64,000 nucleotides of DNA from positions 32,364,001 through 32,428,000 of the forward strand of contig NC_042998.1 of assembly GCF_006345805.1 (NCBI RefSeq). Reading direction: 5' to 3'. The DNA comes from Octopus sinensis. Its lineage: Eukaryota. Positions 3,420 through 53,344 of this stretch are shown here, piece by piece. Below the pieces are notes generated by a model, which saw nothing but the letters and a program-made list of their open reading frames with translations, was not told where the DNA came from and ran no database searches. A program made the translations under genes and the position numbers. Position 1 is the stretch's first letter. Each line of letters begins with the position of its first letter.

Positions 3420-3610
3420 TTACATTATTTACATTTGGCGGATATTTGTCCTCATCTTGTTTGTTGCTAACACAACGTTTCGGCTGATATAACCTCCAGC
3501 CTTCATCAGGTGTTTTGGGGAAATTTCGAACATGGGTTCTCATTCCTAAGGTATTTTTCGATGTTGTTGTTATTCTTCTTCTTCTTCTTCTCTTCTTCTT
3601 CTTCTTCTTC

Positions 3611-3662
<52 letters not shown>

Positions 3663-3821
3663 CATTATTATTATTATTATTATCATTATTATTATTATTA
3701 TTATTCAGGTCACTGCTTGGAATCGAACTTGGAATCTTGGGGCTAGTAGCCCACGCTCTTAAACACTGCACCATATCCCCACGGGCATATGGCGTAGTTC
3801 GATTCTAGGCAGTGACCTGAT

Positions 3822-3870
<49 letters not shown>

Positions 3871-4060
3871 TAATAATAATAACATCGAAAACTACCTTAG
3901 GAATGAGAACCTATGTTCGAAATTATCCCAAGACACCTGATGAAAGCTGGAGGGTGTATCAACCGAAACGTTGTGCTAACAACAAACAAGATGAGGACAA
4001 ATATCCGTCAAATGTAAATAATGTAAATAATGTACATAATTCCTCATCTCTTAAATATAG
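3420..4060. mobile_element. Palindromic tRNA-head/(AAT)n/hammerhead element, copy P1
   Basis: Inverted arms around the centre ccc-ac-ggg (~3781); HHR at 3469-3514 (-) and 3932-3977 (+); TSD aacagttc(t/c)ttcga at 3406-3419 and 4061-4074. Confidence 0.85.
3469..3514 (-). ncRNA. Minimal type I hammerhead ribozyme motif
   Basis: Minus strand reads AACAC-CUGAUGA-A-GGCUG..CAGCC-GAAA-CGUU-GUGUU; stem I is 5 bp and stem III is reduced to the palindrome AACGUU. Confidence 0.8.
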
Positions 4061-24513: not shown

Positions 24514-25077
24514 CAGTTCTATATTTAAGAGATGGGGAATTATGTACATTATTTACATTATTTACATTTGACCGATATTTGTCCTGATCTTATTTGTTGC
24601 TAACACAATGTTTCGGCTGATATACCCTCCAGCCTTCATCAGGTGTCTTGGGGAAATTTCGAACCTGGGTTCTGATTCCTAAGGTATTTTTCGATGGTGG
24701 TGGTGGTGGTGTCGTTGTTGTTGTTGTTGTTGTTGTTGTTGTTCTTCTTCTTCTTCTTCTTCTTCTTCTTCTTCTTCTTCTTCTTCTTCTACTTCTTCTT
24801 CTTCTTTTTCTTCTTCTTCTTCTTTTTCTTCTTCTTCTTCTCTTCTTCTTCTTCTTCTTCTTCTTCTTCTTCTTCTTCTTCTACTTCTCCTTCTTCTTCT
24901 TCTTCTCCTCCTTCTTCTTCAGGTCACTACCTGGAAAATACTTTAGGAATGAGAACCCAGGTTTGAAATTTCCCCAAGACACCTAATGAAGGCTGGAGGG
25001 TATATCAGCTGAAACTTTGTGTTGACAACAAACAAGACGAGGACAAATATCCGTCAAATGTAAATAATGCAAATAAT
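24514..25077. mobile_element. Palindromic tRNA/HHR element, copy P3 (centre deleted)
   Basis: Inverted arms; HHR at 24602-24647 (-); exact TSD cacttaaaata at 24503-24513 and 25078-25088. Confidence 0.9.
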
Positions 25078-26738: not shown

Positions 26739-27174
26739 TTATTTACCTTATTTACATTTGACAGATATTTGTCCTCATCTTGTTTGTTGTTAACATGTTT
26801 CAGCTGATATACCCTCCAGCCTTCATCAGGTGTCTTGGGGAAATTTTAAACCTGGGTTCTCATTCCTAAGGTACTTTTTGATGTTATTATTATTCAGGCC
26901 ACTGCCTGGAATCGAACTCGGAATCTTGGGGTTAGCCCTGTGCAGTGTTACTAACCCCAAGATTCCGAGTTCGATTCCAGGCAGTGGCCTGAACAATAAT
27001 ATTAATAACAACATCAAAAAATACCTTAGGAATGAGAACCCAGGTTTAAAATTTCCCGAAGACACCTGATGAAGGCTGGAGGTTATATCAGCTGAAACAT
27101 GTTAACAACAAACAAGATGAGGACAAATATCTGTCAAATGTAAATAATTCCTCATCTCTTAATTATAGAACTGT
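26739..27174. mobile_element. Palindromic tRNA/HHR element, copy P4
   Basis: ~200 bp near-perfect inverted arms, each with CTGATGA...GAAA. Confidence 0.9.
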
Positions 27175-37866: not shown

Positions 37867-38444
37867 ATATTAGGGTAGCAAAAAATTCAATAGAAATTAT
37901 TTTGCCACCAGCGGTCTAGTGAGAAAGAGGAAATAGTCAGAGACTATTAATAAATTCAACAACAATTGAGGAACGGCTATAATAGGCCGTTCGACCCACT
38001 AGAAATAGCAGCAAGGGCTCCAACCGCAAATAGTAGTAATTCCGAAATCAGAGGAAAAATGAAAAAATTAATTCCGAAATTGAATCGGCAGTTTATATTT
38101 GCTGCCGATAAGTTGGCGCGAGTACGATGATTTTGAAAATTTTAGGTCAGATATTACCGAGGCATGAAGGTAGCTGCCTCGTGTAATTTCTGTCCCTTCT
38201 GGCTCCTTTACTGATGAGCGCGTTGGCCTTTTGGAAGATTGACTTGATTAAGTTTAATTTAATTTAATCAGGCTGGTTTACCATTAAAAAACGCCGAAAC
38301 AATGCATTGTCTAAAGAAGAACAGGGTAAATGTTTTTTTAATTTTTCCTCTGATTTCGGAATTACTACTATTTGCGGTTGGAGCCCTTGCTGCTATTTCT
38401 AGTGGGTCCAACGGCCTATTATAGCCGTTCCTCAATTGTTGTTG
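37867..38444. mobile_element. PLE-like element with ~110 bp inverted repeats, inserted in the (TA)n of a SINE A
   Basis: Arms at 37957-38066 and 38335-38444; extra tail on the left; internal HHR; SINE A pieces at 37678-37860 (+) and 38495-38958 (-). Confidence 0.8.
38206..38316 (+). ncRNA. Type I hammerhead ribozyme, canonical core, ~78 nt stem II
   Basis: cttta-CTGATGA-gcgcgtt...aacgcc-GAAA-caatgcatt-GTC-taaag; predicted cleavage after C38311. Confidence 0.85.
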
Positions 38445-38479
<35 letters not shown>

Positions 38480-38799: not shown

Positions 38800-39059
38800 C
38801 ATATATATGACGGGCTTCTTTCAGTTTGTGTCTACCAAATCCACTCACAAGGCTTTGGTGGAGGCTATAGTAGAAGACACTTGCCCAAGGTACCATGTTG
38901 TGGGACTGAACCCAGAACCAAGTGATTGGCAAGCAAGCTGCTTGCCAAACAAACTACATAATTCTTTCTACAGAATTTTGTGAATATGTACACAGGGACT
39001 TTTATTAAATACAGTATTTCTTTATGTTTAGATATATAATTTCTAAAATTATTATATTA

Positions 39060-39396
39060 CGGAGATGTACTCGCATAGCAAGTGATTTGATCTGAGATCG
39101 TGTGCTGGAACGAAAACAATTGCAGCGTGGAAGGTGTTTGTAAGCCATTTAAGAAACACACAAAAGCCGTTTGATTCACTTCAACATTTAAGTTTAATTT
39201 GTCAAAATATTTTCGTCGCTAAAATCCGCAACCTGTTCACTGACAAAAATCCAGAGATGCAGCATGGACTTTTGTCAGTAAACAGGTCACGGATTTTAGT
39301 GACGAAAATATTTTGACAAATTAAACTTAAATGTTGAAGTGAATCGAACGGCCTTTGTGTGTTTCTTAAATGGCTTACAAACACCTTCCATGCTGC
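39060..39396. mobile_element. Palindromic insertion with a one-sided 60 bp tail and G3-C8 hammerhead-like motifs
   Basis: Arms at ~39120-39253 and 39265-39398; exact 15 bp TSD aaaattattatatta at 39045-39059 and 39397-39411. Confidence 0.85.
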
Positions 39397-39502
39397 AAAA
39401 TTATTATATTAATATTGACATGCTGTAGTTAAAAATGAGACTAAGATATAAGATGGATAAAGCTCAGCTATCTGTCATTCGTCTACTCAATTATTATTTA
39501 GC

Positions 39503-39945
39503 TAAGGTTACAAGCTGGCATAAACATTAGCACGCTGGGCAAAATACTTAGCGGTATTTTGTCTGTCTTTATGTTCCAAGTCAAATTCCGTTGAGGTCGA
39601 CTCTGCTTTCATCCTTTCGGGTTCGATAAATTAAATACCAGTTGCATCCTGCAGTCGATCTAATTGACTGGCTCCCTCACCCCAAAAATTTCAGGCCTTC
39701 TGCCTAGAGTAGAAAAGATTTTAGTAAGGCAGTGAGCTGGCAGAAATGTTAACACAACTGGTGAAATGCTTAATGGTATTTCATCTGTTTTTACGTTCTG
39801 AGTTCAAATTCCACCAAGGTCGACTTTGCCTTTTATCCTTTCGGGGTTGATAAATTAAGTACCAGTTGCATATTGGGTTCGACCTAATCAACTGGCCACC
39901 TCCCCCAAAATTTCGGGCCTTGTGTCTTGAGTAGAAAAGAATTAT
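39503..39945 (+). mobile_element. SINE family B, tandem dimer (alternative tail)
   Basis: Two head-body units, each ending gagtagaaaaga; a similar dimer lies on - at ~46470-46800. Confidence 0.8.
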
Positions 39946-51876: not shown

Positions 51877-52735
51877 CATGGTGCATTCTAGAAGTTTTGA
51901 GACTTTAGGTGAGGCAGTCATAACAGTTCTAGATTATCATACTTTCAGCATATCATTACTGGACATCTAATAATCTGACCTGTCAACTTCTGTCACTCTG
52001 GAGGGAAGGGCATGGCTGTAAAAGTACTTTGAACACATCACACTACTAAACACTGCTTGTTAGAGCTGGTTAGTTTGCAGAAGGAAGTCAGGATGTTTGG
52101 AATATCACTATGCTATAATGTTTTGTGCTGAAGTGGGCAAAAATGCTAGAGAAACTTTTGAAATGATCCAAACTGCTTATGGATTAACTTTTCCATTGGC
52201 TCAAAAGATTCAAGGATATTAGAGGGGCAGTGAGAGATGATGAGAGGTGTGGGGGATGAGAGAGGAGTTAGAAAATCAGAACTGGTTGAGAAACTGCAAT
52301 TTTCTGGATGAAGAGTGTTGTGCATCTATAAAGACAATAAGCATACACAGTTCTGTATTTAAGAGACGAGGAATTCATCATCATCATCATCATCGTTTAA
52401 CGTCCGTTTTCCATGCTGGCAAGGGTTGAACGGTTCGACTGGGGTCTGGGAAGCCAGGAGGCTGCACCAGGCTCCAATCTGATCTATCAGTGTTTCTACA
52501 GCCGGATGCCCTTCCCAACATGAACCACTCTGGGAGTGAAGTGGGTGCTTTTTACATGCCACCGGCACACAGGCCAGAGGAGCTGGTACATTATTTACAT
52601 TTGACAGATATTTGTCCTCATCTTGTTTGTTGTTAACACAATGTTTCGGCTGATATACTCTCCAGCCTTCATCAGGTGCCTTGGGGAAATTTCGAATCTG
52701 GGTTCTCATTCCTAAGGTATTTTTCGATGTTATTA

Positions 52736-52795
<60 letters not shown>

Positions 52796-53344
52796 TCACT
52801 CCCTGGAATCGAATAATAATAATATCGAAAAAATATCTCAGGAATGAGAACCGAGGTTCAAAATTTCCCCAAGACAGCTGATGAAGGCTGGAGGGTATAT
52901 CTGCTGAAATGTTGTGTTAACAACAAACAAGATGTAAATAAAATGTAAATAATGTAAATAAGCATACAGTTTATAGAATTATTCATATAGATCTGAACAT
53001 GTGCAAAATTTGTGCAGCGATTGTTCTTAGGGTGCTCATTACTCAGGACCCTGCTAACTAACCACTTCACAGAGATGCAAAGCAAAACTATTCCCCAGCC
53101 TCCTTAGAACCCAGACCATGCCCTTTGTGACTTATGGTTGTTTCCCATGCTGGAGAACTTCAGGGTCAGTTGTTTTGAAAGTCAAGGAGGCTGTCACAAG
53201 GGGTGCCAGGTACCTTTATTTGGAAGGATTCCAGGTGCACCAAAGTTAGAGGATCCTACTTTGACAGAAATTAGAGATTTGTACTTCTTTGAAATTAAAT
53301 GTCTCTCCTGAAAAAGTCTGCAAACTTTTGGAATATATCTTATA
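51877..53344 (+). pseudogene. Decayed mariner transposon with both TIRs and nested insertions
   Basis: Imperfect TIRs at 51877-51906 and 53313-53344; YAIMFCAEVGKNARETFEMIQTAYG, KRFKDIRGAVRDDERCG, KTIPQPP*NPDHALCDLWLFP, RGSYFDRN*. Confidence 0.8.
52348..52956. mobile_element. Palindromic tRNA/HHR element, copy P6, containing a family C insertion (52376-52587)
   Basis: Exact TSD aataagcataca at 52336-52347 and 52957-52968; HHR in both arms. Confidence 0.88.

Follow-up and report, generated by a model that had tools for sequence, protein, structure and literature searches.

Type I hammerhead ribozymes are found in the pseudo-LTRs (pLTRs) of metazoan Penelope-like elements (PLEs), where, according to Cervera and de la Pena (2014, PMC4209133), they commonly have an extra nucleotide after position 9, a G10.1-C11.1 pair and a helix III whose palindromic sequence suits dimer formation, and occur as opposite-strand pairs 100-700 bp apart. 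The pair between core positions 3 and 8 is reported there as C3-G8, and as U3-A8 in one family. Compensatory change at this pair is also described in a survey of natural core variants (Perreault et al. 2011, PMC3088659), and natural U3-A8 hammerheads, the product of a double transition, are already known from both papers. G3-C8, which needs two transversions, goes unmentioned in the available text of that survey and is known as an engineered variant (PMC11167929, PMC3884650). In the Poseidon element PAc of Anolis (Frangieh et al. 2024, PMC11167929), the ORF start adjoins the hammerhead, insertions bear a tail of 30-40 nt that lies in the first codons and is made by two internal start sites of reverse transcription, and AT-rich targets are cut on both strands; the PAc core is C3-G8, with G3-C8 present in that study only as a rescue mutant. 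Neptune-type PLEs (Craig et al. 2021, PMC8557442) combine a reverse transcriptase (RT) with a CX2-5CxxC linker and, at the C terminus, a GIY-YIG endonuclease with CCHH, and leave inverted 5'-truncated copies with a one-sided tail at (TA)n targets. Metazoan non-LTR retrozymes (bioRxiv 10.64898/2026.07.22.740005) are short hammerhead repeats related to PLE pLTRs and arranged as tandem non-coding arrays.

Here we describe a 337-bp insert of two inverted arms and a one-sided tail at positions 39060-39396 of the window, i.e. the whole 64,000-nucleotide stretch of Octopus sinensis DNA that was analysed, together with the repeat family to which the insert belongs. It resembles the metazoan PLE hammerheads in topology, pLTR location, helix features and opposite-strand pairing, and PAc in the ORF start next to the hammerhead, the tail in the first codons with its apparent two start sites, and the AT-rich targets apparently cut on both strands. 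It differs from both in that its core pair is a natural G3-C8, and from PAc also in its longer tail of 60 nt; moreover, the parent ORF has a CxxC linker, which Penelope and Poseidon lack. The RT, linker, endonuclease, copy layout and (TA)n targets are shared with the Neptune-type PLEs, whose copies are truncated at random, whereas the octopus copies are mostly stubs that begin at an inferred transcription start. Like the retrozymes, the family consists of short hammerhead repeats; unlike them, the insert is an inverted pair that comes from a coding element and holds the ORF start. Our main reading, with a probability of about 0.7, is that the insert represents the terminal ~207 nt of a PLE pLTR copied head to head, and that its G3-C8 hammerhead is likely a weak cleaver aided by a second sense copy or by protein.

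Architecture of the insert

The inverted arms (39120-39253 and 39265-39398) are 134 nt each and 94% complementary, with a spacer of 11 nt. The one-sided 60-bp tail of the preliminary description is confirmed at 39060-39119 (minus strand), on the left side only; it spans the two fixed 3' end sites of the family (+147-151 and +206-207 from the inferred start) and contains codons ~10-30 of the parent ORF, whose first 30 codons occupy minus-strand positions 39059-39148 with the ATG at minus 39148. The insert is two opposed copies of the parent pLTR end, with coding sequence as tail. The long arm (39060-39253, minus strand) is a sense copy from ~+10 to the distal end site, and the short arm (39255-39396, plus strand) reproduces, in sense, the stretch between the inferred start (+1) and the proximal end site. 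One extra G, likely copied from an RNA cap, precedes the +1 of the short arm at 39254 (plus strand). The insert is flanked by 15-bp target-site duplications at 39045-39059 and 39397-39411 (plus strand), the last 3 letters of the left copy being element end as well. That the two copies are identical, as first described, holds true; their length is less definite, as up to 5 letters also equal element ends, leaving a true duplication of ~10-15 bp.

A minimal type I hammerhead motif lies on the minus strand at 39198-39247, with G3 at 39240 and C8 at 39235. It has a stem I of 7 bp, a stem II of 5 bp with G10.1-C11.1, an extra nucleotide after A9 and a palindromic helix III of 6 nt, and the predicted cut falls between 39205 and 39204. 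The second motif, at 39271-39320 on the plus strand, has G3 at 39278 and C8 at 39283, and carries a private G5-to-A change at 39280. The first reading of both stretches was correct letter by letter. The GUAAACA core that it gave for the plus arm is indeed present, but as decay after insertion (G5 to A) and not as the family form: compared with the majority form of the 30 best loci, both GUAAACA and the stem II differences are private to this copy. The G-U pair in stem II and the stem II differences between the arms are likewise CpG-type decay of the family form, not covariation. At G5 the plus arm fails the minimal type I core, and its motif is predicted to be inactive.

Two further repeats lie close to the insert. 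A common repeat in two diverged direct copies ~223 bp apart occupies 39581-39943 on its right, and an inverted-arm repeat with 123-nt arms (95% complementary, 266-nt spacer) occupies 37945-38456 and ends at a TA run.

Fold and detection of the hammerhead motif

The core positions U4 G5 A6, A9, G12 A13 A14, A15.1-U16.1 and H17 are present in the family form and in the minus arm, as are stems I and II, G10.1-C11.1 and the palindromic helix III in the motif. Both 50-nt arms fold stems I and II as originally drawn (z -2.7 and -3.7), and in the single-arm RNA fold stem II has a probability of 1.0 and 6 of the 7 stem I pairs have at least 0.9. A transcript of the whole palindrome folds into a hairpin of -221 kcal/mol, which buries the motif. 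Since each transcript has one sense arm and the 134-bp hairpin buries it, the two arms cannot form a hammerhead dimer; the genomic copy in the window is most likely a dead end.

A strict descriptor open to any Watson-Crick 3-8 pair matched the minus arm and, in the window, three motifs of canonical form; 60 simulated 64-kb controls with dinucleotide frequencies equal to those of the window gave 0 matches. With Rfam, the motif had no hammerhead match, whether at the gathering score or with E relaxed to 10; the Rfam matches that were obtained are hairpin-type chance matches only. The expectation that searches for CUGANGA would miss this motif was therefore borne out, and extends to Rfam. The absence of any matching Rfam hammerhead model is also what one would expect if the likeness to a hammerhead had arisen by chance. 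We regard this explanation as practically negligible, as the simulated windows contain no match and the motif and its fold recur at the homologous position in a sister family and in relatives; this positional homology refutes it in substance.

G3-C8 is the prevailing core of the family

A DNA search of the 2.7-Gb genome returned 3,196 candidates, of which 40 were scored, with 93-96% identity over the full length. The 22-letter context of the G3-C8 core has 4,826 exact matches in the genome, whereas the canonical C3-G8 version with identical stems has 0. The preliminary description proposed GTGAACA as the family consensus, and GUGAACA is the majority core of both arms among the 30 best loci. 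To sample arms, we took the first 100 matches listed on contig C1 to a motif downstream of the cut; the sequences of all except two were retrieved and gave 95 distinct arms. Among the 75 that span the core, 69 have G3-C8, 4 have G8, 2 have T8 and none has C3-G8; G3, C8 and GAAA are thus kept in the family form. Older subfamilies, defined by a different loop II (2,711 matches), have G3-C8 in 90 of the 100 matches listed. G3-G8 was considered as the form of an older subfamily and rejected, as it occurs in 2 of the 100 older-loop arms listed. Young and older subfamilies, despite their differing loop II, share U4, G5, A6, A9, GAAA and U16.1 without change. Conservation within the family is mostly a matter of shared descent.

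Copies with G8 number 178 and mostly have the older loop type; A8 and T8 together number 110 (of the 100 that were listed, 28 have A and 72 have T). This excess suggests a source lineage with a broken pair. The reading is not clean, because in 5 of 7 two-armed G8 insertions the opposite arm has C8. A tree of 80 arms, with 7 of 77 branches supported, is too poorly resolved to order G8 and C8. Contigs from four sequencing runs cover the unit, although RNA ends, strand and level cannot be read from contigs.

The hammerhead literature that could be searched yielded no natural G3-C8 hammerhead, and none is given in the available passages of PMC6765202, PMC10085705, PMC6155905, PMC13282606 and PMC5625713. 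We consider the flipped 3-8 pair a real but modest variant.

Related families carry other pairs at positions 3 and 8

A sister family with 54% protein identity is present in the same genome (3,454 candidates). Its hammerhead occupies the same place before the tail; stem II is nearly the same, stem I differs, and 34 of 36 matches have C3-G8. A C3-G8 motif at the matching position supports homology of the octopus motif to a real hammerhead. Among metagenomic relatives, 2 of 19 loci passed the scan, one with C3-G8 (L182) and the other with U3-A8 (L172). With three different pairs in related elements, a conserved pair can be argued; the comparison, made by eye and script on a handful of families, argues for covariation of positions 3 and 8.

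In the sister family (L141-L170), moreover, position 9 of the hammerhead is C, and helix III lacks a palindromic centre. The annotated Octopus vulgaris protein P0063 contains a Penelope-like RT in its first 149 residues and is probably a gene-model fusion. P0063 and P0002 match one and the same stretch of RT, and P0063 appears to belong to the sister family as a piece of it. Part of an Octopus vulgaris protein matches genomic copies with up to 98% identity.

The parent is a Penelope-like element

Six widely spaced inverted pairs were fetched, and two of them (L039 and L040) enclose a fragment of a GIY-YIG ORF, with Pfam PF01541 (GIY-YIG) above the cut-off in L040. The parent ORF exists in many near-identical copies, whose identity reaches 95-99%, with open frames of up to 1,042 aa. 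The 1,042-aa frame shows RT motifs by eye, the CxxC linker and the CCHH endonuclease, and two homologues bear the name reverse transcriptase domain protein; a Pfam search with the 978-aa protein found no family. One copy (L333) has the order pLTR-ORF-pLTR with the unit in both repeats; from the ATG within its unit the frame stays open for 608 codons, reaching into the RT domain, and breaks after codon 608. This near full-length parent copy is located at G000:C2:32070500-32077500, ~330 kb from the insert; the window itself occupies G000:C2:32364001-32428000. At two other loci (L077 and L082) the tail continues into the ORF, and three (L040, L076 and L079) consist of an inverted 5'-truncated copy with a one-sided tail, a layout that is known and ordinary for PLEs. 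These features identify the parent as an endonuclease-bearing PLE. By its CX2-5CxxC linker, GIY-YIG and CCHH it would fit the Neptune type, an assignment made from these features.

A spliceosomal intron close to the start is an optional feature of such elements. Here, acceptor-like sequence precedes +1, and spliced junctions were not observed in the genomic copies or at the contig joints listed. Two loci hold tandem arrays of ~400-nt units that run from +1 into the ORF (L335, 3254-4328; L338, 2084-2843), with 5 of the 6 listed cores broken.

Arm ends and junctions record the integration process

Arm 3' ends fall at two sites, ~+149 and ~+207, and one arm ends at each site in 95 of 103 head-to-head pairs, which were pooled from several samples, not all of them unbiased. 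The 5' ends (n = 95) cluster as well: 46 lie at -19..+5 and 24 at +6..+22, with 7 scored as entering the upstream pLTR. The predicted cut site is the exact start of one arm in 95, which is explained by homology with the other arm, and 3 of the 95 start within ~5 nt of it. As the 5' ends pile up at the likely capped start and not at the cut site, the templates of the stubs appear to have been uncut.

Among the junctions without parental upstream sequence, 26 of 38 have a G before +1. The opposite arm could have templated ten of these, and another five represent one tandem junction, leaving about ten independent cases. Reverse transcriptases are known to add a G opposite the RNA cap. Given this habit and the extra G at the junctions, an internal promoter likely has its capped start at +1; counted from there, the hammerhead motif lies at +16..+66. 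An internal promoter has been reported for the D. virilis Penelope (PMC2377424). A splice acceptor was also considered as the determinant of the 5' end and tentatively set aside, the junctions having no common upstream exon and often an extra G.

The two arms of a pair agree at subfamily sites in 81 of 89, 78 of 81 and 82 of 88 pairs (three sites). Given this usual agreement and the rarity of mixed pairs, a single RNA or a single source locus will mostly have supplied both arms. Different RNAs for the two arms as a rule were likewise considered and are unsupported, the arms agreeing with few exceptions. In two insertions (L014 and L132) the arms differ in a subfamily-type loop II, which suggests two RNA templates for each.

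The palindrome itself could be thought to be the mobile unit, whether as a MITE-like element, a fold-back element or a non-coding retrozyme moving whole. Its architecture is common to thousands of short copies, and agreement between arms, as in 81 of 89 pairs at one site, is what fold-back copying would give. Against it, the centre junction varies among copies, single arms and long pLTR copies occur, and in L333 the unit is contiguous with the PLE ORF on both sides; the few pairs with mixed subfamily arms also speak against it. We disfavour this explanation as very improbable and keep to head-to-head copying of a PLE terminus.

Many insertions are found in TA microsatellites, and five at unique sites have duplications of 10-15 bp. 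In the mechanism that we propose, the element RNA would start, capped, at +1, and the RT-endonuclease would nick AT-rich target DNA on both strands. For each strand, reverse transcription would be primed at one of two internal sites of the RNA, which lie 60 nt apart; each cDNA would extend to the 5' end of the RNA, and the joining of the two cDNAs head to head would yield a palindrome with a one-sided tail. The ribozyme aside, the paired 3' ends (95/103) and likely capped start of the family record Penelope-type integration cleanly in vivo, and the near-intact parent ORF makes a model of two-strand, internal priming testable.

Does the G3-C8 hammerhead cleave?

G8 of the hammerhead acts through its 2'-OH (PMC6155905), which explains why base 8 is free to vary as long as it stays paired. 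The C3G/G8C double mutant of PAc regains part of the cleavage, which needs protein; mutating the PAc ribozyme left in vitro insertion unaffected, and RNA ends matching the cut site were not found (PMC11167929). For the octopus motif, we rate the odds that it cleaves under some conditions as roughly even or slightly above.

Copies that read from the upstream pLTR through the motif into the ORF bear on this question. G8 occurs in 3 of 4 independent copies of this kind, a very small, post hoc count of lineages that are maybe not independent, compared with 0 of 23 3' pLTRs and 0 of 8 ORF copies beginning at +1. G3-G8 in read-through copies may be a weak hint of cutting. Among upstream-pLTR copies overall, G8 is not enriched (1/27 vs 5/87), and an enrichment in 3' pLTR copies was looked for and not found. 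L333, a more-than-unit copy with two intact G3-C8 motifs, counts against cutting. That G8 copies outnumber A8 and T8 together and are mostly in older subfamilies suggests that templates with a broken 3-8 pair also transposed. A more specific proposal is that an active natural G3-C8 hammerhead, carried in thousands of copies by a PLE family that moved recently, cuts more-than-unit read-through transcripts and leaves the capped 5' copy uncut, with G3-G8 as a surviving intermediate between C3-G8 and G3-C8. We hold it tentatively, as possible but below even odds.

The opposite case is a motif that derives from a hammerhead and no longer cuts, with stems that serve as internal promoter, in protein binding or in translation control upstream of the ATG, and with G3-C8 fixed. 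The lack of a 5'-end pile-up at the cut site, the G8 copies in excess of the mutation background and the C at position 9 of the sister family, from which it follows that the cores of this clade tolerate change, are all compatible with such a loss. Moreover, +16..+66 is the zone of the internal promoter of the D. virilis Penelope (PMC2377424), and PAc inserts in vitro without need of its ribozyme activity (PMC11167929). What this case explains poorly is the pattern of change: both substitutions hit the one Watson-Crick pair of the core and preserve pairing, U4, G5, A6, A9, GAAA and U16.1 stay constant across young and older subfamilies, and relatives carry C-G and U-A at the 3-8 position. We consider it doubtful and retain an assisted, likely weak cleaver as our reading.

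If the motif cleaves, it would be the third Watson-Crick pair found in nature at the hammerhead 3-8 position, and searches fixed on CUGANGA or UUGANAA would miss thousands of motifs in one genome. If the active G3-C8 reading is true, genome-wide hammerhead counts would leave out an entire class, and both start sites of reverse transcription, together with the capped RNA start, would be mapped in vivo by the stubs.

Other hammerhead motifs in the window

The window contains another palindromic family with a one-sided tail (3420-4026, 24548-25077, 26748-27147, 52619-52934 and ~59273), some centres of which are tRNA-like; ARAGORN found no tRNA in the window. This family has a canonical C3-G8 minimal hammerhead, matched by the descriptor at minus 3509 and plus 59273. 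A canonical hammerhead in these palindromes makes it likely that they too were moved by a PLE. A third canonical minimal hammerhead motif, unrelated to the others, lies at minus ~58420; its stem II has 4 bp.
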